Source of the DNA: Escherichia phage AV108
Direction: 5' to 3' (one strand)
Sequence record: OR352938.1
Length of the DNA stretch: 64,000 bases
Shown here: in pieces, positions 1,808 to 31,200 of the stretch
Layout: every line of letters starts with the position of its first letter
Numbering within the stretch: position 1 is the first letter of the stretch
Notes under the pieces: generated by a model
The model's input: the letters and a program-made list of their open reading frames with translations, nothing else
Told to the model about the DNA's origin: nothing
Databases searched by the model: none
Made by a program: the position numbers and the translations under genes

Positions 1808-2049
1808 ATACGACCCTTTAACCCAGCACAGATTTTAGTCGGTTCTTTACCGTGCCACATTAAGTAAAGTCCGTTAATGCGACCTTGTTTTGTGTGTGAT
1901 TCTTTTCTGATCTTCTTATAGTGTCGTGCTTCCTCAACTGATTGTTTAGAATACCAATCATAAAGGAAGAGGCACAAAGGCCAACCATTAGCGGCCTTAA
2001 TGCAGTTATTAAGAAATTCCTTATTGCGTTTAATTAATTTTCTTTTCAC
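1804..2049 (-). CDS. hypothetical protein
   Basis: 81-aa ORF, start and stop coupled to neighbours by ATGA overlaps in the same operon. Confidence 0.45.
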   Translation of the reverse strand: MKRKLIKRNKEFLNNCIKAANGWPLCLFLYDWYSKQSVEEARHYKKIRKESHTKQGRINGLYLMWHGKEPTKICAGLKGRI

Positions 2050-2297
2050 GCTGCCCCCATTGGTTTGATAGTAACAGAATCTAAAAGACCTTTGTTAGCC
2101 AGTTCTCGGCAAGTTTTCAGATCCGCAACTTCCCAGCCAGCCGCAATCAGGTTATCAATCAGGCTGTTAGCAACTTCTTCGCTCATGAAAGAGCACTGTT
2201 TGCCGATGGTGTAGCGCACACGCTGTAATTTCAGTTTACGGAAGCCTTTAACGTTCAGGTCTTTAGCGATTTTCTTTGCGGTTTCGATGTTAACCAT
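2046..2297 (-). CDS. hypothetical protein
   Basis: 83-aa ORF; AGGAGAATCAAACA-ATG leader; promoter at 2338-2366. Confidence 0.5.
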   Translation of the reverse strand: MVNIETAKKIAKDLNVKGFRKLKLQRVRYTIGKQCSFMSEEVANSLIDNLIAAGWEVADLKTCRELANKGLLDSVTIKPMGAA

Positions 2298-2337
2298 TGT
2301 TTGATTCTCCTAAGTGGTATCTCGTCTTGATGGTTGT

Positions 2338-2366
2338 ATTGTAGGGGAGTTATCCTCCCCTGTCAA
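2338..2366 (-). promoter_or_regulatory. sigma70-type early promoter
   Basis: tgtcaa at 2361-2366 (TTGACA), TACAAT-like -10, 17-nt palindromic spacer GGGGAGGATAACTCCCC. Confidence 0.5.
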
Positions 2367-2380
2367 CACTTTTTATAAAA

Positions 2381-2548
2381 TTATTTGTTAATTTCTGGTG
2401 CGTTGCTAGGATAGTAACCTTCTTTAACTCCGAGGTATTTCGCAACCATCCCTACAATCTTCTGTGCTACTACAATGTCAAATTTAAGATAATCTTCGCC
2501 GTGGGTTTCAATGATATATGCTTCACATGCTGCTTTAGTCTCGAACAT
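2381..2548 (-). CDS. small protein (55 aa), copy 1 of a duplicated gene
   Basis: ATG at 2546-2548 with GGAGAATCAAA leader, TAA at 2381-2383; translates MFETKAACEAYIIETHGEDYLKFDIVVAQKIVGMVAKYLGVKEGYYPSNAPEINK; below the ORF-track size cutoff. Confidence 0.5.
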   Translation of the reverse strand: MFETKAACEAYIIETHGEDYLKFDIVVAQKIVGMVAKYLGVKEGYYPSNAPEINK

Positions 2549-2581
2549 TTTGATTCTCCTATTTAGTTTCGTTATGTGTGC

Positions 2582-2610
2582 ATTATAGGGGATCTCCCGA
2601 TCCCCGTCAA
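2582..2610 (-). promoter_or_regulatory. sigma70-type early promoter
   Basis: attata 2582-2587 and cgtcaa 2605-2610; spacer palindrome GGGGATCGGGAGATCCCC. Confidence 0.55.
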
Positions 2611-2624
2611 CAACTTTTTTAAAA

Positions 2625-2906
2625 TTATTCGTGATTAGTTTCGATGTTGTGTATTTTGCACCAGTTCAGCCAATCGCCAAGATCCTGATAGTTGATGCTT
2701 TTATCTGCTGCCATCGTTTTTGTCTTGATACCCATATGTGCGTTATGGGTAAGCATTTTTACAGTGAACTCAATTTTATCGCCTTTAGCTTTAACATCAA
2801 CCAGTTTGGTCCACTGGCTACCAGCGCCTCGAATGTTCATACCAACGATGTTTCCGATGTATGCTTCTTTGTTTTTCAGGATTTCGGTTGCTTTGATGAA
2901 TTTCAT
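2625..2906 (-). CDS. hypothetical protein
   Basis: 93-aa ORF with GGAGAATC RBS; own promoter at 2940-2968. Confidence 0.55.
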   Translation of the reverse strand: MKFIKATEILKNKEAYIGNIVGMNIRGAGSQWTKLVDVKAKGDKIEFTVKMLTHNAHMGIKTKTMAADKSINYQDLGDWLNWCKIHNIETNHE

Positions 2907-2939
2907 TTTTGATTCTCCAGTTCGTTTCGGTATGGGTGT

Positions 2940-2968
2940 ATTATGCTATGTTCTTACTTTGGTGTCAA
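2940..2968 (-). promoter_or_regulatory. sigma70-type early promoter
   Basis: tgtcaa 2963-2968, CATAAT-like -10 at 2940-2945. Confidence 0.5.
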
Positions 2969-2976
2969 CAACTTTT

Positions 2977-3246
2977 TTAGATATTTTCAGAAATAAATTT
3001 TAAAACTTGACGTAAATGTTTCTCATCTTTGATAGTCGCCGGAAGTTCTTCTTTTACTTCCTGTGCAAGATAGATATTTCCGTTCCAAGTGAAAGATCCG
3101 TCTTCGTTTACGCGATAGCTGAACATCCACTCGCAATCATTTTCGATTTCATATACACACAGAAGGGTGTAATCGTTAAAGCTATTGATTTCAAGGTCGA
3201 AGCCGTGACGTTTTGCAAAGTTGGTAGTGGTTTTAGTCAGCGCCAT
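2977..3246 (-). CDS. hypothetical protein
   Basis: 89-aa ORF, AGGAGAATCAAACA-ATG leader, promoter at 3287-3315. Confidence 0.55.
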   Translation of the reverse strand: MALTKTTTNFAKRHGFDLEINSFNDYTLLCVYEIENDCEWMFSYRVNEDGSFTWNGNIYLAQEVKEELPATIKDEKHLRQVLKFISENI

Positions 3247-3286
3247 TGTTTGATTCTCCTAAGTGGTATCTCGTTTCGATGGGTGT

Positions 3287-3315
3287 ATTATGCTATAGGC
3301 GTGATCTGGTGTCAA
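3287..3315 (-). promoter_or_regulatory. sigma70-type early promoter
   Basis: tgtcaa 3310-3315, CATAAT-like -10 3287-3292, 17-nt spacer. Confidence 0.5.
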
Positions 3316-3340
3316 CAACTTTTTTAATTTTTTGGAAATA

Positions 3341-3366
3341 AAAAAGCCGACACTAAGGTCGGCTAA
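3341..3366 (-). terminator. rho-independent terminator
   Basis: hairpin AGCCGAC-N6-GTCGGCT followed by a U-run on the minus-strand transcript, just downstream of the 3372..3680 stop. Confidence 0.6.
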
Positions 3367-3371
3367 TAAAA

Positions 3372-3680
3372 TCATTTAGACAAATAATCATTCAGTGCAA
3401 TCCGGTCGGCGTATGCTGGTGTTACGTCAATCGCAATCACTTTAACGCGTGCTTTCTTGCGACCTGGGTTTTCTCGTAACCAGTGCTCATGACCGTGAAC
3501 ATTTTTATACTTTGATGCTTCTTCAAATGTACGGATCGGACCTGGATAATCTGCGTAAAGGATCTCTAGGTCTTCGGTGATGTAAAAATATACATCATAA
3601 TTACTGTTCTCTAGTTTAAGCAGAGACTTTCTGAACATTGGGAGATTTTCGCGGGTAAATTCAAAGATATTATCTTTCAT
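3372..3680 (-). CDS. small protein, HxHxW/V-x-A-I-D-V paralog family member A
   Basis: 102 aa; GAGGA RBS; motifs HGHEHW and VIAIDV shared with five other ORFs in 4103-6778. Confidence 0.55.
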   Translation of the reverse strand: MKDNIFEFTRENLPMFRKSLLKLENSNYDVYFYITEDLEILYADYPGPIRTFEEASKYKNVHGHEHWLRENPGRKKARVKVIAIDVTPAYADRIALNDYLSK

Positions 3681-3733
3681 AGTATTATCCTCAATAGTTT
3701 GATGAAAAGGGGTGGGGCTTAACGCCCCGTATA

Positions 3734-4021
3734 TTAAAACAGTCCTTCCTGTACACCGTAGTAGAGTTCATCGCTGATAATTTCATTAATGCGACGGTGT
3801 GCATATTCCTGATTTGCGAAGTTATCAGCAAGTTCTACTTTAGTTTCGCCGTCATGAGTCCATTTAGTGATAACTTTACCATCTGCAAATTTGAAGTTGA
3901 ACTCTTTAGCTACTGCATCACGTACCAGACGTGCGAACTTGTTGTTACGGATTGCATTATCGGTTTCGTGTGCAGCGTGAGCGAATTTATTAACTTTCAG
4001 AGTGATAGTAATGTATGCCAT
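3734..4021 (-). CDS. hypothetical protein
   Basis: 95-aa ORF with GGAGAATCAAC leader; promoter at 4068-4096. Confidence 0.55.
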   Translation of the reverse strand: MAYITITLKVNKFAHAAHETDNAIRNNKFARLVRDAVAKEFNFKFADGKVITKWTHDGETKVELADNFANQEYAHRRINEIISDELYYGVQEGLF

Positions 4022-4067
4022 AAGTTGATTCTCCTAGTTAGAAAGTGTATCTCGTTTCGATGGGTGT

Positions 4068-4096
4068 ATTATGCTATACACCCGATCTTATGTCAA
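4068..4096 (-). promoter_or_regulatory. sigma70-type early promoter
   Basis: tgtcaa 4091-4096, CATAAT-like -10 4068-4073, 17-nt spacer. Confidence 0.5.
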
Positions 4097-4102
4097 CACT
4101 TT

Positions 4103-4381
4103 TTATAAAATAATTTTTTGATATTTTTCTATGATGTTTGTGTAGGTCACGTCAACCGCTAGCACCGTTGCTTCGAATCCACCGTTTAACCAATGGCTAT
4201 GATCATGATCGTGAAAGAAACCTAGACCAGTACGAAGACCTTCTTTATATTCGGAGCGTACATTTAGATCATCATCGATAAACAGATAAAACCATGAATT
4301 TTTACTAGGATTGATGATACAACCTTTCAGATTAGGGAGAATATCACGACTAAGAATAAACTTATCACCTACTTTGAGCAT
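4103..4381 (-). CDS. small protein, paralog family member B
   Basis: ORF track 4103..4471; likely start ATG 4379-4381 (MLKVGDK) with GAGGAA RBS; motifs HDHDHSHW and VLAVDV. Confidence 0.5.
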   Translation of the reverse strand: MLKVGDKFILSRDILPNLKGCIINPSKNSWFYLFIDDDLNVRSEYKEGLRTGLGFFHDHDHSHWLNGGFEATVLAVDVTYTNIIEKYQKIIL

Positions 4382-4404
4382 AATATTTTCCTCACTTATA
4401 AAGT

Positions 4405-4704
4405 TTAACTGTTGTTTTTCTCGTAATGCTGAATGCGTGCTTGATCTGCTTCCGCTGGTGATAGATTCCATGCAACCACTACAACTTCTGACGCATCGTC
4501 ATCCGTTTTTGATACCCAATGATTGTGATTCATACAGTTATTTGCTATCGAGTGAGCAAATGATTTCATCACTGGAGACGTATAATCATAGTAACGGATT
4601 TTCAGATTTTCATCAACGTACAAATAGATCGTATAAGGTTTATATTCAGTAACCAGTAACAGACAGTTACGCAATTCTGGGAAAATCTTTTTAGTTAATT
4701 TCAT
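4405..4704 (-). CDS. small protein, divergent paralog family member E
   Basis: ORF track 4405..4785; likely start ATG 4702-4704 (MKLTKK) with GAGGA RBS; motif NHNHW and VVVVAW. Confidence 0.45.
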   Translation of the reverse strand: MKLTKKIFPELRNCLLLVTEYKPYTIYLYVDENLKIRYYDYTSPVMKSFAHSIANNCMNHNHWVSKTDDDASEVVVVAWNLSPAEADQARIQHYEKNNS

Positions 4705-4705
4705 T

Positions 4706-4945
4706 TTATAATCCTCGGTCGCGGCTATAGTACACGGTACGCCATACAATTTCATGTTTCGTGTCGCTCCAGCACACGATCTCATTTACTCTTAAATCTT
4801 TGTTATCAACAAAAGATGAACATTGTGACGCTTCTTTCATCATTTTATCTGCTGTTTTCTCATCAAATACAGCACAGATTTCTTTATACACTCGATAATC
4901 TTTGAATTGACTCTGGATACCCATAATTAACACCATTCCAACCAA
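4706..4945 (-). CDS. small protein, member of a second tandem paralog pair
   Basis: SQFKDYRVYKEICAVFDEKTADKMMKEASQC resembles the neighbouring 4884..5147 product; exact start uncertain. Confidence 0.4.
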   Translation of the reverse strand: MVGMVLIMGIQSQFKDYRVYKEICAVFDEKTADKMMKEASQCSSFVDNKDLRVNEIVCWSDTKHEIVWRTVYYSRDRGL

Positions 4946-5147
4946 TTGTTTTTGAGAAAACGTTTATCCACTGTTGAGTGTAGCATGTTTCTTTCCATGA
5001 TACAATACGAGTAGAATAATGGTTTTTGTTTCCAGAAAAGGACGGGCATTTTGATGCATCTTCCATCATCTTTTCGGCGAACTCTGGTGCGTATACTCGC
5101 AGGATCTGTTGATATGCTTTGTATTCTTTAAATTTGCTCATAATCAT
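4884..5147 (-). CDS. small protein, member of a second tandem paralog pair
   Basis: SKFKEYKAYQQILRVYAPEFAEKMMEDASKC resembles the 4706..4945 product. Confidence 0.45.
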   Translation of the reverse strand: MIMSKFKEYKAYQQILRVYAPEFAEKMMEDASKCPSFSGNKNHYSTRIVSWKETCYTQQWINVFSKTIGWNGVNYGYPESIQRLSSV

Positions 5148-5406
5148 TCACTACCTTATCAGCTTCTTTTGTTGTTTTTACATCAACTGCGATAACTCGT
5201 AAAGGTTCGTCATGGTTCCACCAGTGGTCATGAATATCAGCTTGTGATTTATCACCAAAGGAATCACGAATATCATTTTTACATTTATAGCTAATGTGAC
5301 CTTCATAGTCAACATAAAGGTAATTATCGAAAATCGGCGTTTTTAAGATCATACCGAAAAATCTTTCTTTGTGTGTCTTATCCAGCGTTGCAGTAATTCG
5401 CATCAT
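5128..5406 (-). CDS. small protein, paralog family member C
   Basis: AAGAGGAA RBS; motifs HDHWW and VIAVDV. Confidence 0.5.
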   Translation of the reverse strand: MMRITATLDKTHKERFFGMILKTPIFDNYLYVDYEGHISYKCKNDIRDSFGDKSQADIHDHWWNHDEPLRVIAVDVKTTKEADKVVNDYEQI

Positions 5407-5418
5407 AATATATTCCTC

Positions 5419-5598
5419 TTAGAAAGGGATGGTCATTTCTTGAGCTTGTACATTCTCGTTAGGATTAAACTTCATCCAACCGATATTGTCTACCAGCATA
5501 TGCACATTTTTATCATATCCTACGTGGGTAGTCAATACTGTATGTGCTTTACCTTCAATGATGAGTTCCATGTACTTCTGAACTTCGATAGCTTTCAT
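5419..5598 (-). CDS. small protein (59 aa), below the ORF-track cutoff
   Basis: ATG 5596-5598 with GGAGAATCAAA leader, TAA 5419-5421; MKAIEVQKYMELIIEGKAHTVL...; promoter 5631-5659. Confidence 0.4.
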   Translation of the reverse strand: MKAIEVQKYMELIIEGKAHTVLTTHVGYDKNVHMLVDNIGWMKFNPNENVQAQEMTIPF

Positions 5599-5630
5599 TT
5601 TGATTCTCCGTTTGTTGTCTTGATGGGAGT

Positions 5631-5659
5631 ATCTTACTACTCCCTTTAATCATTGTCAA
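5631..5659 (-). promoter_or_regulatory. sigma70-type early promoter (variant spacer)
   Basis: tgtcaa 5654-5659, TAAGAT-like -10 inside palindrome GGGAGTAGTAAGATACTCCC. Confidence 0.45.
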
Positions 5660-5662
5660 CTA

Positions 5663-5830
5663 TTATTTGTTAATTTCTGGTGCGTTGCTCGGATAGTAAC
5701 CTTCTTTAACACCAAGATATTTTGCAACCATTCCGGTGATCTTCTGTGCTACTACGATATCGAATTTCAGGTAGTCTTCACCGTGGTTTGCTACAATGTA
5801 CGCTTCGCATTCTGCTTTAGTCTGGAACAT
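5663..5830 (-). CDS. small protein (55 aa), copy 2 of a duplicated gene
   Basis: MFQTKAECEAYIVANHGEDYLKFDIVVAQKITGMVAKYLGVKEGYYPSNAPEINK; about 80 percent nt identity to 2381..2548 including leader; ORF track lists 5663..5896. Confidence 0.5.
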   Translation of the reverse strand: MFQTKAECEAYIVANHGEDYLKFDIVVAQKITGMVAKYLGVKEGYYPSNAPEINK

Positions 5831-5864
5831 TTTTGATTCTCCTATATCTCGTTGGTATGTGTGC

Positions 5865-5893
5865 ATTATAGGGGATCGGTGATCCCCTGTCAA
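5865..5893 (-). promoter_or_regulatory. sigma70-type early promoter
   Basis: attata 5865-5870, tgtcaa 5888-5893, spacer palindrome GGGGATCACCGATCCCC. Confidence 0.6.
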
Positions 5894-5898
5894 CAACT

Positions 5899-6192
5899 TT
5901 ATAATGCTTTATATGCGTATTTCATAAATTTGTCTGCCACTTCATTGGCATGTTCAGATTCTACGCCTGATTCGAGAACAATAGCTAGGTCGGTTTCGTC
6001 ATTCCCGCCGTACCAATGATTTGATGTTCGATTTTTTTCAATTGGAAATTGGTCACTTTTATCTGTGCGACAAAATACATCTAAATGCTCGTCGATGTAA
6101 AAGATCCAATCTTCATAAAGAATAACGGTATTAGCAAGATTTTTATTGCCTTCAACGAAAGGTTCGGCTACAAACAAATTAGTATGTTCCAT
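5899..6192 (-). CDS. small protein, divergent paralog family member F
   Basis: ORF track 5899..6249; likely start ATG 6190-6192 (MEHTNLF) with GAGGAA RBS; motif SNHW and AIVLESG. Confidence 0.45.
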   Translation of the reverse strand: MEHTNLFVAEPFVEGNKNLANTVILYEDWIFYIDEHLDVFCRTDKSDQFPIEKNRTSNHWYGGNDETDLAIVLESGVESEHANEVADKFMKYAYKAL

Positions 6193-6457: not shown

Positions 6458-6778
6458 TCACACAAAATGGCGTGTCAATGCTTCTTTTGCGGTTCCGCTA
6501 AGACTTTCGATCTCTCCTGGCATAACATCAACCGCCAGAACTTCTACAACATCCTCGGACCCTAACCAGTGAGTATGACCTTTGTAGAACTTAATAACCA
6601 GACTACCTTCCTCGTCCCATTTAACGCTATCGCTAGCCCACCACACATCACCGTCGATAAAGTTGATGTAAAGCACACTACGCCACATTGAATTAATTAC
6701 TTTCAATACTGCGCCTTTCATCTCTTCCACGGTATGGTCTTCCATTTTGAAGACCTCACCTACCTGAACTTTTGCCAT
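6458..6778 (-). CDS. small protein, paralog family member D
   Basis: GAGAGGTG RBS; motifs HTHW and VLAVDV. Confidence 0.5.
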   Translation of the reverse strand: MAKVQVGEVFKMEDHTVEEMKGAVLKVINSMWRSVLYINFIDGDVWWASDSVKWDEEGSLVIKFYKGHTHWLGSEDVVEVLAVDVMPGEIESLSGTAKEALTRHFV

Positions 6779-6795: not shown

Positions 6796-6975
6796 TTACA
6801 TAACAATCACGCCAGCCGTTGAAAGTTGATGTTTCAACTGAGCATTTTCTGCTACCGTCAAATCAATGATTTCTTGTGACGCTGCAATCATATAGCCATT
6901 GGTGATATTGTTTTGCATCAGTTCAATGGTTTCTTCGTTGTAGCGGATTTTAGCGATGATTTCGTTGAAGTTCAT
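6796..6975 (-). CDS. small protein (59 aa), below the ORF-track cutoff
   Basis: ATG 6973-6975 with AGGAGAATCAATT leader, TAA 6796-6798; MNFNEIIAKIRYNEETIELMQ... Confidence 0.4.
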   Translation of the reverse strand: MNFNEIIAKIRYNEETIELMQNNITNGYMIAASQEIIDLTVAENAQLKHQLSTAGVIVM

Positions 6976-7009
6976 AATTGATTCTCCTAGTTCGTTTCGG
7001 TATGTGTGT

Positions 7010-7038
7010 AGTATAGGGGATCACCGATCCCCTGTCAA
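7010..7038 (-). promoter_or_regulatory. sigma70-type early promoter
   Basis: tgtcaa 7033-7038, TATACT-like -10 7010-7015, spacer palindrome GGGGATCGGTGATCCCC. Confidence 0.55.
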
Positions 7039-7050
7039 CAACTTTTTGAA

Positions 7051-7527
7051 TTATTTTTCTTGATGCTCGCGATCGTACTTTTCGAAATAAAATTCTACTG
7101 GCTGGTCGTGGATTGACAGCAAGCCAAAGCGTTTAGCCGCTCGCAATCCCATATTGCGCTGAATGTACTTCTGGAAGTTCTCGCGTATACACTTACGCCA
7201 GGATTCTAAGCCCATGCAGCTTTTATAAAGATTGCATTGCACACATGCCGGATTCATGTTATCAAGTATATCATGCTCCGGTTTATGCATTCCTACAACC
7301 TTATACTTCCACGATCCATCATCATTACGGGCAATTCGTCCATTTTCATCATAGACAACCTTTGAGCGTCGTAATACTGGTTTGATATGGTCTGCGTGCC
7401 AGCGATCCCCTAGTTCCTCGCCACAATAGGCACAACGTCCACCGTATTTCATTTTCAGGATCTGACGTTGCTCTTTCTTTGACAATTTTTTAGGTTTAGG
7501 GGCTTTCGCCCCTTCATTATCACACAT
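7051..7527 (-). CDS. HNH endonuclease-domain protein
   Basis: CxxC ... HADHIKP ... CVQCN zinc-finger HNH pattern; starts immediately after the ligase stop. Confidence 0.6.
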   Translation of the reverse strand: MCDNEGAKAPKPKKLSKKEQRQILKMKYGGRCAYCGEELGDRWHADHIKPVLRRSKVVYDENGRIARNDDGSWKYKVVGMHKPEHDILDNMNPACVQCNLYKSCMGLESWRKCIRENFQKYIQRNMGLRAAKRFGLLSIHDQPVEFYFEKYDREHQEK

Positions 7528-9016
7528 CGAATACCTCTTTTACTGTATTTGCAGCGGTCTTGTCGTAGCGAATACGTTTGATGATCGGGAGAAATAAAGA
7601 GAACTCCGGTTCATCTTCTTTACGTGATTTGCTGCGAATGTACCCGTTGCATGTCATCTCGATGACTTTTCCAATCAGGTTATGACGGTCAGCCCATAAC
7701 ATTTCTCGGTCAAGTTCATTTCGACGATCGAACGGAATTACACGTTCGATACCATCATCACCTTTTTCGGTTGTAGTGTCGGTTAATCCCGATCCGGTGT
7801 TAGTCATCATTCGTCCACACGCACTACGGACAGTAAAACCGCCTACCTTATTGGGGTCTTTACTATGCGGATATACATCAACAATTTCCGCGTCGAAGTC
7901 AATCACTTCTTTAAATTTAACCTGATCTTTACTACGGCGATCTTCAAATACACCATGTAAATTTTTAAGGATAATACCTTCTAAGCCCATGTTGACATAA
8001 CGATGATATACTTCGCGAGCTTCATCGATATTGTTAACTACAGTGTTTTCGATGATCTGAACACGAGGATCGTTAAGTTCTTCAACAATCTGTTTTAGTT
8101 CTTCAAATCGATCTTTATATTGCTTCGTTGCTTTCTCGTTTCCGTAGTACACATCACGGTCGATAACATCCCAGACAGTGTAAACAATACATTGGGCTTC
8201 TTCTTTTGGAATAGTTCCTTTCAGTGATTTGTTGAGGATACCATTTCCGGTCTGACGGTCTGCAACAACGGATTCTTTCACTGCTTCCGCTACTGGCGTT
8301 AATGGCATTTCCTCTTCTTCAAATATCCATGACAGAGTACCATCATAAACGCTCTCAACGAAGTTCTGCGCTGGTGTTTGCGAAAGGGTAGGCATATATA
8401 CCAATTCACCATCTAGAACAATTCCACGGCCTCGTAGACGCTCTAAAACCGCAAACAAATCATCAAGTCCTTGATAGGTATTACCTGAGCGGGTATAGAT
8501 TGCTAATGTTTCCCCGTCAATATCAGCCATACCACGAGCGCCATCGCTTTTAAGTTGTGCATACGCCGGATACTTGATATTAGCAATAGTCTTATCAGAA
8601 CATGACGATGCAAGGTGACACGGTTGCTGGGGGATCAGTTTCTTCCATACCTTGTTTGCAGTGGTAGCGGAACAACCACATTCCAGATCACGATTCAGGA
8701 CCATCATTGCAACTTTAGCATCATCTTCTGACAAGCAAGTCAGAGTATCGGTAACTAGCTGTAATGCTGCGTTACCAGTTACTTGACGCGTGGCAAGTTT
8801 ATTTTTAAAGACCTGTAATGCACCGGATAAAGACAATACAGACGAATAGCGAGATGGTTTATCGTATTTCTTTACGCCAAACGTAACCTGTTTGCAATAT
8901 GCCAGATAAAAGCATTCTTTCAGTGTTTCATTGCTTGCAGATTCTTTCAGGATCTTTTCTTTCAGCGATGTTTTGTCGGTCGCTGCAAGCTGGTTAATGA
9001 TATTAAGAATTGACAT
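7520..9016 (-). CDS. 30: ATP-dependent DNA ligase
   Basis: collinear with the T4 ligase sequence as recalled (KADGAR active-site region, EGIILKN, C-terminal TVKEVF); ATG at 9014-9016 with GAGGTG RBS, ORF track extends to a GTG at 9022. Confidence 0.9.
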   Translation of the reverse strand: MSILNIINQLAATDKTSLKEKILKESASNETLKECFYLAYCKQVTFGVKKYDKPSRYSSVLSLSGALQVFKNKLATRQVTGNAALQLVTDTLTCLSEDDAKVAMMVLNRDLECGCSATTANKVWKKLIPQQPCHLASSCSDKTIANIKYPAYAQLKSDGARGMADIDGETLAIYTRSGNTYQGLDDLFAVLERLRGRGIVLDGELVYMPTLSQTPAQNFVESVYDGTLSWIFEEEEMPLTPVAEAVKESVVADRQTGNGILNKSLKGTIPKEEAQCIVYTVWDVIDRDVYYGNEKATKQYKDRFEELKQIVEELNDPRVQIIENTVVNNIDEAREVYHRYVNMGLEGIILKNLHGVFEDRRSKDQVKFKEVIDFDAEIVDVYPHSKDPNKVGGFTVRSACGRMMTNTGSGLTDTTTEKGDDGIERVIPFDRRNELDREMLWADRHNLIGKVIEMTCNGYIRSKSRKEDEPEFSLFLPIIKRIRYDKTAANTVKEVFDV

Positions 9017-9482
9017 TTTCACCTCGTTTTGTTAAACGTTCACGAATATCATTGAGGATACTACAAAATTCCGATTCAGTCAATATAGTCTTTAACGGAT
9101 CAGTTCCACCTATGCTATGACGCAATTTCTTATTTCCGGTAGCGAGTAATGCTTTACAAAATTCTGGGTTATTCCGTGCCATCGTAACAAATGCCAGATG
9201 TACCAGTCTGTAATAATGCTCACTCATTCGATGAATAGGGCGACCCTGAAAATATAACATGTGATTCTCAATCTTTTCAGTTCTTCCGGTTCTTTTTGCT
9301 TTGCCACCGTGCATCAAAAAGATTTCTCTTTGTCTCTGAGGGTTCTTAAATCTTAGCCCCTGTAAAAATCCTTCTGTGCTGTTAATATCGCAACCAAATA
9401 GACGGAATGGTCTTTTATTGAAATTACTCAATTCACCCGATGGATAAGGTCCACCCGCATAGATATCAATTTCAGAAGTCAT
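9003..9482 (-). CDS. NADAR (YbiA/DUF1768-like) domain protein
   Basis: by-eye similarity to E. coli YbiA: SNFxxxPF, T.E...Q..KF, LLATG, GG.D...ILT...N.LG segments. Confidence 0.55.
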   Translation of the reverse strand: MTSEIDIYAGGPYPSGELSNFNKRPFRLFGCDINSTEGFLQGLRFKNPQRQREIFLMHGGKAKRTGRTEKIENHMLYFQGRPIHRMSEHYYRLVHLAFVTMARNNPEFCKALLATGNKKLRHSIGGTDPLKTILTESEFCSILNDIRERLTKRGENVNS

Positions 9483-28245: not shown

Positions 28246-31200
28246 ATGGCAGATTTTTCTCAACATTTCAAGGCCACATTTGGCTTTGACGCTGGTAATG
28301 AAAAGGTCGTCAATGTAGCATACGCAGATAAAAACACATCAACGGATGCGGTCAACGTTGAATTTTTCAATTACCATAATGGCATTACTCAGTATGACAC
28401 AACTCGCGGTTATGATCAATACGGAACTACAATCTATCAAAACCGTCCGTATTATGCAAAAGAAGATATCACAAAGCCAGCAGGTGATTTTGACCCGACT
28501 AAATGGCAAGCACTGCGCACGGACCCACGTTGGGATTATATTGCAGCAACTTCCGGTGATACTCCTTTACAGTCTGGTGATTATATCGCAGCAGATGGTC
28601 AATTTGCAAACTTGACTTTCTCTATGCCAACTAAACCAGCAGAGGGAGACACTATAACAGTAAAAGATATCGGTGGCAAGTGTGGTGTTAACGAATTATC
28701 GTTCTTGAGTACAGGACATGAGTTTTACCATAACGGTAATGTGTACAACCGAAAATGGTATTGCACTACCCCGTATGCAATGAACTATTTCATCTTTGTT
28801 CGTAATCGTTGGCATGTTTATCAGACAGGAACAGAGCCACGCGGTGTGTACGCACAGCCAGCGATTGATGCTATTCAAATGCAGAATGGTGATCAGGTAT
28901 TTCGTCGTAGTTCGTTGGGTAATATTACCTTAGTGCTTCCTAAGTTTGCCAACAATGGCGACATGATCCAGACTACAGACCTTGACGGATTAACCGCAAC
29001 CAACCACGTTACGGTTAAAGTTCATGAGCACGCAGAAGAACAATCAATTGGCACGTCCGGTCTAAAAGAGATTATCGGTAAGCGTAGCGGTCATGGTGTA
29101 TTCATCTTTGACAAGACGGAAAACTTATGGCGTTTGTGGGATGGTGATCAGTCTGTTCGTCTTAAACCGATCATCGATGACACTCGCTTGCAACCTAATA
29201 GCTATGTTGCTGTATTTGGTGATCGTGATGTTACTCTGACGCTGCCGACCAATGTCGAGCCGGGTGATCGTATTCAAGTTTCTATGCAGTATATGAACGG
29301 AAACCAGAATTGCCGTATTATCGCCGCCACAGAGGATACAAAAATCCTTATGCAGAAAAACATGGTTCAGTTTCCTAAGCGTAGCGAGTACCCATTCAAT
29401 GGGACCGATACATGGACGGGAGTATCTGAATTGTCTTTCAACGCTGCAAATGATTATGTACCTTATCTGGAGTTCTCTTATTCAGAAGGTGATGATGGTA
29501 AGAAATACTGGTTGGTGGCACATGCTCACCCGATTGTAGAACGAGTAGATCCGACTCGTAAAGATCGTGTTGGTGTAATTGCACTGGCTACCCAAACTGA
29601 AACGAATAAAAACCATGAAGAGAATCCTAGCGACGAAGTTGCAGTAACACCAAAAATGCTGGCTAATAAAACCGCCAACGAAACTCGACGCGGTATTGCT
29701 CGCATTGCGACTCAAGCGGAAACGCATCAAGATACTGGTTCCAACTTCCTGGATGATGTTATCGTTACGCCTAAAAAGTTAAATGACTGTGTTGCTACCG
29801 AAGCCCGTCGTGGTGTGATGGAAATTGCAACCCAGCACGAAACCAATGAAGGTTTAGACGATACCCGCGCTATTACTCCTAAGAAATTAGAAGAACGTCG
29901 CGCTTCCGAAGATCTCGCTGGTATTGCTGAAATTGTTCAGGCTGGCGGCAGTGCTGCCGCTCGACGTGGCGAAGCTGGTACAGGGATCTATAACATCAAT
30001 GACCATGCTAAAATTGTTACGCCAAAAAACATCAACGAAGTCAAGGCGACCGAAACTTCCCGTGGTGTTGGCTATCTGGCAACTGACGCGGAAGTGCAAG
30101 GGGCTACAGAATCAACCCCGCAAGATGCTTTACTCATCACGACTCGCACGCTAACGAAACGTACTGCTACCGAATCGCGCACTGGTATCGCTGAAATTGC
30201 AACTCAGGAAGAAACAAACTTAGGTCAAAGTGATAACCATATCATCACGCCTAAAAAGTTGCATACTCGCCGCGCAACGGAAACTTTACACGGTTTAGCA
30301 GAAATTGCAACTCAGCCGGAATTTGACGCAGGTCGTGACGATGATCGCATTTCTACCCCATTGAAGATTAAAACCTTCTTTGAGAATGCACAGCGTTTGA
30401 AAGTAGATCCGACTCAGGGGCTTAACCTTACTGGTGATTTGTGGCAAGGTATCATGATCAGCGGTCTGGATGCAACCGAAGATACAAAAGGTGTCGCTAA
30501 AGTTGCGACTACTCAGCTTACTGACGCTGGTCAAGATGATACTACAATCATCACGCCTAAAAAGCTGCAAGGCAAAAAGGCCACCGAAGGTAAAGAAGGT
30601 ATTATCCGAGTTGGTACTCAAGCCGAAACCGTGGCTGGTATTATGGACAATGTAGCAATTTCTCCGAAGAACTTCAAATATGTTGTTCAGACAGAGGATA
30701 CATGGAAAGCAACCGAAGCGCGTCGTGGATTCTTGAAAGTTGCTACTCAGGAAAACTGTTTTGTTGGTGATAATCTGCAAGGTTCTACTCAAGAACTAGG
30801 AAACTACCAGCATGACGGAATTGCTGTTACCCCTAAAGGATTAAACTACGCACTTGCTAATTTCTTACCTAAGATGGCAACCGCTCAGAATAGTTTGAAA
30901 TTGGGTAACGTAGAGGCCTCTAAATGGGCGCGTAGAGACATTGATCAGACCATAGAGAGCAATTACACGTTTAATAAAAACGTTAACGTGAAGGGCGATT
31001 TAGAGTGCTTAAAATCAGGTTCCTTTGAAACTCTGTCTGTGACTAAGAACTCGACCGATGTTCCGAGTAATGGTCATCTGGTGTTGGGTGAGCGTGGAGT
31101 TGACGGTCACACCGGAATTACTCTGCATGGCACAACCGCATCGGAAGGCATGAAAAACTCTTGGTCTATTATCGTTGGTGGTACTGGAACAGCGCAAGTT

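Follow-up and report, generated by a model that had tools for sequence, protein, structure and literature searches.

Two 55-aa genes in the alt-DNA ligase region of a Krischvirus, probably old paralogous stem-loop cassettes

Why should a phage hold two near-identical copies of a gene for a protein of only 55 amino acids (aa), and are both copies maintained? The question is raised by a stretch of 64,000 nt from Escherichia phage AV108 (sequence record OR352938.1), referred to here as a whole as the window. Our analysis indicates that the pair, copy A and copy B, very probably represents old paralogous cassettes, each consisting of a single ORFan gene behind a promoter-early stem-loop (PeSL), in the alt-DNA ligase hyperplastic region of a Krischvirus, and that both are under selection. 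The two genes are:

2381..2548, minus strand: copy A, 55-aa open reading frame (ORF), orthologue of RB49p191, phrog_8009 (ORF and translation, Krischvirus proteins, PHROG match)
5663..5830, minus strand: copy B, 55-aa ORF, orthologue of RB49p205, phrog_8009 (ORF and translation, PHROG match, tblastn)

By its sequence, the source phage is a Krischvirus, an RB49/phi1/JSE-like, T4-type coliphage; the window shares 93-98.5% DNA identity with Krischvirus genomes (such as FL37, kaaroe, KFS-EC, RB49, phi1 and JSE). The RB49 counterparts of copies A and B, RB49p191 (ORF191) and RB49p205 (ORF205), are both annotated as "hypothetical protein" and are located between alt and the DNA ligase gene. The stretch holding both copies is a hyperplastic region, and the neighbouring ORFan192 was assigned to HPR3 by Arbiol et al. 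2010 (PMC2839356).

A first-pass annotation of this DNA had described two near-identical 55-aa genes about 3.3 kb apart, and in this it was correct: coordinates and translations agree with ours. Each ORF, on the minus strand, is 168 nt long with its stop codon, and the 55-aa translations are MFETKAACEAYIIETHGEDYLKFDIVVAQKIVGMVAKYLGVKEGYYPSNAPEINK for copy A and MFQTKAECEAYIVANHGEDYLKFDIVVAQKITGMVAKYLGVKEGYYPSNAPEINK for copy B. In an ungapped comparison of the coding sequences (CDS), 141/168 nt are identical (83.9%), and the proteins share 49/55 residues. Five of the six amino-acid differences (residues 3, 7, 13, 14 and 15) fall in or just before helix 1. The copy A protein is 98-100% identical across Krischvirus records. 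A repeat finder given no prior knowledge recovered the pair as family D7, a 172-nt repeat (2380-2551 and 5662-5833, 84% identity, spacing 3282) longer than any other direct repeat in the window, and tblastn found no third copy there. A listed 77-aa version of copy B extends the frame to a TTG at 5896. Since this codon lies just upstream of the -35 hexamer, and GGAG stands 8 nt before the ATG at 5830, the 77-aa form is an artefact and ATG 5830 is the real start.

Is each copy under selection in its own right? This had been claimed in the first-pass annotation, with the counting of synonymous and non-synonymous differences named beforehand as the test. By the Nei-Gojobori method, copies A and B have 20 synonymous differences over 33.3 sites (pS 0.60, synonymous rate dS ~1.2) and 7 non-synonymous differences over 131.7 sites (pN 0.053). 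The ratio of non-synonymous to synonymous rates (dN/dS) is 0.046 (bootstrap 95% interval 0.009-0.13; Fisher p = 1e-11), and the differences at codon positions 1/2/3 number 3/4/20. Thus, no lack of synonymous bias was seen: synonymous sites are near saturation while the proteins are 89% identical. In comparisons with the siphovirus and Salmonella homologues described below, pN/pS is 0.2-0.4, with synonymous sites saturated.

Sequences from related phages, 7 of the A type and 8 of the B type, allow fixed differences to be separated from polymorphism. Nineteen sites are fixed between the types, 12 of them synonymous and 7 in codons with an amino-acid change. Polymorphism amounts to 5 synonymous sites and 1 non-synonymous site within A, and to 6 and 1 within B (11 and 2 in total), and this mostly synonymous variation within each group argues that each copy is constrained on its own. 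None of the 15 sequences has a frameshift or a stop. Together with the retention of both copies in 51/58 records, these patterns bear out the claim of selection and indicate that both copies are under purifying selection. The A/B split is older than the radiation of the sampled Krischviruses. All 19 fixed differences lie in nt 7-108 of the CDS and none in the last 57 coding nt (109-165), where sites 117 and 141 vary within A as well as within B. This difference-free 3' third would fit occasional gene conversion or crossing-over, which we treat as a lead and not as a result; the boundary at nt 108 was picked after inspection of the data, and its P of ~3e-4 is therefore optimistic.

What drives expression of the two genes? 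PeSLs were described in RB49 and phi1 by Arbiol et al. 2010 (PMC2839356) as elements ahead of ORFans that combine a sigma70-consensus promoter with a G/C stem-loop terminating transcription. In the same study, PeSL-PeSL recombination was found to shuffle cassettes and to yield mini-circles; one sequenced RB49 mini-circle held ORFs 191-194, the copy A orthologue included, and RB49 PeSL206/205, the orthologue of the copy B promoter, gave ~13,000 Miller units (PMC2839356). Both copies in the window have a PeSL on either side:

2549..2622, minus strand: PeSL ahead of copy A (pattern scan, sigma70 scan, RNA fold, repeat families D2-D4)
5831..5905, minus strand: PeSL ahead of copy B, orthologue of RB49 PeSL206/205 (sigma70 scan, RNA fold)
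2298..2380, minus strand: PeSL downstream of copy A, promoter of the RB49p190-like gene 2046..2297 (pattern scan, sigma70 scan, fold z = -3.7)
5599..5662, minus strand: PeSL downstream of copy B, promoter of the gene 5419..5598 (sigma70 scan, RNA fold)

Ahead of copy A, a -35 hexamer TTGACG (2610..2605) and a -10 hexamer TATAAT (2587..2582) score 11/12 in the sigma70 scan with a 17-nt spacer. The stem GGGGATC/GATCCCC (2605..2588, loop GGGA) forms a 7-bp hairpin in the RNA fold; the element also has an AT-rich tract and a Shine-Dalgarno (SD) sequence GGAG at 2559..2556. The counterpart ahead of copy B has TTGACA (5893..5888) and TATAAT (5870..5865), scoring 12/12 with the same 17-nt spacer, the stem GGGGATC/GATCCCC (5887..5871, loop ACC) in an 8-bp hairpin with a fold z of -2.5, and GGAG at 5842..5839. 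The whole intergenic RNAs of these two PeSLs fold with minimum free energies of -14.1 and -15.9 kcal/mol. At both copies, an AT-rich tract lies upstream of the -35 hexamer (TTTTAAAAAAGTTG and ATTATAAAGTTG), and the hairpin spacer is followed by AGGAGAATCAAA(A)ATG. The downstream PeSLs mark the 3' boundaries of the two cassettes. That of cassette A has a different stem, GGGGAG..CTCCCC; that of cassette B scores 10/12 in the sigma70 scan (5659..5631), and its hairpin (fold z = -4.5) has a stem that overlaps the -10 box. The repeat begins in the AT-rich/-35 region and ends with the stop codon, ~245 nt in all, and the PeSLs downstream of it belong to different subtypes.

The first-pass annotation had put nucleotide identity at about 80% and extended it into the leader and promoter. 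The figure itself is close, at 83.9% for the CDS and 0.85 for the 80 nt before the ATG, but the promoter part is shared beyond the pair. Two PeSLs that serve unrelated genes, at 170-234 and 6973-7038, are 0.88 and 0.86 identical to that of A, and 0.85 and 0.84 to that of B. Since these are equally similar, the upstream likeness of A and B is that of a PeSL subfamily, of which the window holds four members. We therefore rejected the idea, drawn from promoter identity, that promoter and gene were copied together. A strict pattern of promoter, SD and ATG has 26 matches in the window, all on the minus strand, with 10 of them in the first 7.1 kb, and the PeSL repeats of the window make up repeat families D1-D6. 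The PeSLs of two relatives are mosaic: in the 85 nt upstream of copy A, the stem is of the A type and the leader of the B type in Whisky, whereas in JSE the stem is of the B type and the leader of the A type. Segments smaller than a PeSL are thus exchanged between the two loci without change of the CDS.

How stable is this arrangement in related phages? A tblastn search of the protein against 50,697 phage records, in which some phages are deposited more than once, found it in 70, of which 58 are Krischvirus records with 109 places; two copies are thus present in 51 and one in 7. The interval that separates the copies holds the following genes:

2625..5598, minus strand: 11 small ORFan genes between copies A and B (ORF list, annotation tables, presence/absence across 9 related loci)

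Cognac and FL04 have a single copy with an A-type CDS, flanked by the upstream neighbour of B and the downstream neighbour of A, and all 11 interval genes are missing from both loci. In Cognac, B-type sequence extends from the PeSL through the leader and has given way to the A type by CDS nt 7. The FL04 crossover falls within the stem-loop; the -35 and 5' arm are of the B type, the loop and 3' arm of the A type. The different crossover points indicate two independent deletions between direct repeats. JK32 lacks only copy A, and its junction is a hybrid PeSL: the 5' half comes from the element upstream of A and the 3' half from the one downstream. Such a junction is either the scar expected of cassette excision or an empty target site. 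Additional deletions that take in A are present in MIZ4 and one IMG/VR contig. Comparison with these relatives marks copy A as a presence/absence cassette and the direct-repeat arrangement as recombinogenic. We are highly confident that this arrangement causes loss of the block between the copies.

How did the second copy arise? The first-pass annotation called the genes duplicated, a word that covers both duplication in situ and second capture of a diverged allele; these are not separated by the data. Capture would make the copies xenologues: homologous recombination or mini-circle integration would have brought in an allele from another T4-type phage at a second PeSL. We consider this a possible origin, although not the favored one. 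The repeat comprises a single PeSL + ORF cassette and nothing more, with no neighbouring gene duplicated, and copy A comes and goes among relatives, with a hybrid PeSL at an empty site. PeSL mini-circles with ORF191 have been shown experimentally (PMC2839356), the pS of 0.60 is far above the divergence among Krischvirus orthologues, and the family spreads by horizontal transfer to unrelated siphophages and to a chromosome of Salmonella. However, A and B share residues, HGEDYLKFDIVVAQKI and GMVAKYLGVKEGYYPSNAPEINK, that are absent from every outgroup, and they are thus each other's closest relatives among everything found. Moreover, searches of phage records, protein sets and IMG/VR found no donor lineage outside Krischvirus with one type only. 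The close relationship of A and B mildly favors an origin within the Krischvirus lineage.

Two further explanations concern the likeness of the proteins and the reality of the genes. Gene conversion, rather than purifying selection on each copy, could be the main reason that the proteins have stayed alike. The confinement of fixed differences to nt 7-108 and the polymorphisms shared at sites 117 and 141 are what concerted evolution would leave; the Cognac copy has a B-like patch (ATCTGGGTGTT) within an otherwise A-type CDS, and PeSL segments have visibly been swapped between loci in Whisky and JSE. Conversion would remove synonymous differences too, however, and yet 12 fixed synonymous differences persist beside 7 non-synonymous ones in the 5' two-thirds, stable across all 7 A-type and 8 B-type sequences. 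The dN/dS of codons 17-55 is still very low, and the post hoc choice of boundary weakens the apparent clustering. We therefore think it improbable that conversion is the main cause. That the ORFs arose by chance in a non-coding repeat, or that one copy is a decaying pseudogene, is scarcely credible even for proteins of 55 aa that have no known domain: differences are concentrated at third codon positions, reading frames are intact in all 15 sequences, homologous proteins with saturated synonymous sites occur in unrelated phages, the fold is predicted with confidence, and both copies have a strong SD at the correct spacing. We have high confidence that the two genes are immediate-early cassettes, each transcribed independently, and that they encode a real protein under selection.

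What might this protein do? Both copies match phrog_8009 over the full profile, 1-55 of 55 (E = 6.8e-38 for A and 1.2e-38 for B). The family has no functional annotation, and neither does phrog_485, to which there is a weak match (E = 0.01). Searches of Pfam, NCBIfam, PADLOC and, with the family profile, PDB sequences gave no match for the protein, and structure searches found no fold relative. AlphaFold2 with a 17-sequence alignment gave a predicted local distance difference test score (pLDDT) of 95.3 and a predicted template modelling score of 0.75; an earlier run with 6 near-identical sequences (pLDDT 61.5) was discarded. The protein is thus confidently predicted to be a small alpha/beta domain, with its elements in the order beta-alpha-alpha-beta-alpha-beta. 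Few proteins belong to the family, which is restricted to enterobacterial phages: an exhaustive search of 1.8 billion cluster representatives found 5 family proteins, a set of 5.8 billion proteins held 18 family clusters, another word-indexed search found 4, and IMG/VR has 4 family loci. Homologues with 70-72% identity occur in swi2 (Swiduovirus) and several other ~45-kb siphophages, and others with ~40% identity in Sashavirus. In swi2 and Sasha, the homologue is the first gene after a sigma70-like promoter, with no stem-loop. Chromosomal contigs of Salmonella enterica carry a 53-aa homologue (P0005; gene 6001-6162) with 55-59% identity, which lies among small unannotated genes, presumably in a prophage or prophage remnant; this setting gives no hint of function.

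We propose that host RNA polymerase would transcribe both genes right after infection. The product would be a soluble 6-kDa alpha/beta mini-domain that, tentatively, binds a host or phage macromolecule, and its role may lie in host take-over or counter-defence. The paralogs might differ in specificity or dosage, which we suggest with low confidence. A bolder proposal, which we regard as unlikely, is that the ~245-nt repeats (PeSL and CDS) bracket the 11-gene block as one excisable, transferable "super-cassette", and that the proteins are specificity variants, differing on helix 1, of a small alpha/beta fold not seen before and directed at a host factor, such as different alleles of a defence or take-over target. 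Our preferred reading of the pair remains that of old paralogous single-gene cassettes.

How does the pair compare with known systems? The closest are the PeSL + ORFan cassettes of RB49 and phi1 (PMC2839356; Comeau et al. 2014, PMC4122927), which are from the same genus and the same hyperplastic region. The anatomy is identical (AT-rich tract, sigma70 -35 and -10, stem-loop in the spacer, SD, ATG), both copies have the sigma70 hexamers, 16-18 nt spacing and adjacent G/C stem-loop by which PeSLs are recognized, and indels with hybrid PeSLs are found here too, in Cognac, FL04 and JK32. Promoter activity, termination and mini-circle formation are published for the orthologous RB49 elements (the PeSL206/205 promoter and the ORF191-194 circle). 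Unlike the cassettes described in RB49 and phi1, those in the window have a 165-nt CDS added to the PeSL as flanking homology, and the Cognac and FL04 deletions, at ~3.3 kb and 11 genes, are larger than the mini-circles reported from the locus (0.7 to 1.5 kb). The alt, alt.-1 and alt.-2 paralogs (Nolan et al. 2006, PMC1524935) are likewise clustered, non-essential, paralogous accessory early genes in T4-type hyperplastic regions, but they derive from a gene of known function, the Alt ADP-ribosyltransferase, whereas the phrog_8009 family has no characterised member. Full-length membership of phrog_8009 is itself silent on mechanism.

The kind of element described here is already published, and the orthologous RB49 elements have themselves been used in published experiments. 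Dozens of GenBank records carry annotations of both genes. A text search of PMC2839356, PMC4122927 and PMC1524935 found no mention of the 191/205 paralogy or of the Cognac and FL04 deletions, which are incremental additions; in the first two papers it found no reference to paralogs or to gene duplication at all. The finding is real, correctly interpreted and ordinary; it represents no new class of system.

Several other features of the window and its relatives were observed. Six ORFan proteins of ~92-106 aa in or beside the interval between the copies form a divergent paralog family with 15-30% identity:

3372-3680, minus strand: ORFan paralog
4103-4390, minus strand: ORFan paralog
4405-4704, minus strand: ORFan paralog
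5128-5406, minus strand: ORFan paralog
5899-6192, minus strand: ORFan paralog
6458-6778, minus strand: ORFan paralog

They have in common an invariant H-W motif followed by a V..(A)VDV stretch; of the six, two have a strong match to phrog_9345 and one a weak match, and the others fall into separate PHROGs. A second paralog pair in the region consists of partly overlapping tandem small genes, 4706-4924 and 4884-5141 (minus strand), both with a match to phrog_8471 and with ~40% identity between them. RB49 ORF192 (477 nt; 4449-4925 of the RB49 piece), located between a p193-like gene and copy A, is absent from the window (compared: 2549-2624). JSE has a different gene at this position, and phi1 is likewise without ORF192 according to Arbiol et al. 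(PMC2839356). A 158-aa ORF at 7051-7527 (minus strand) overlaps the 3' end of a 500-aa ORF (7520-9022) and comes immediately downstream of the gene that carries the annotation DNA ligase in related phages; MIZ4 and JK32 have a counterpart of this 158-aa ORF, annotated there as an HNH endonuclease. Far from the locus, a 43-nt direct repeat (family D8) occurs in 5 copies at 29692-30532 with spacings of 108-372 nt, all multiples of 3, and looks like a repeated peptide motif within a large structural gene, possibly a tail fibre.

What does the pair mean for the biology of these phages? It provides a clean natural example of the PeSL model, in which recombination at repeated regulatory cassettes deletes blocks of accessory genes and presumably also moves them; two independent deletions at different crossover points are visible in sequenced phages. 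It also draws attention to a small, confidently foldable and horizontally mobile family of early proteins that has no known relative. Since most Krischviruses keep two diverged copies despite a deletion-prone arrangement, this family is a reasonable candidate for host take-over and counter-defence screens.

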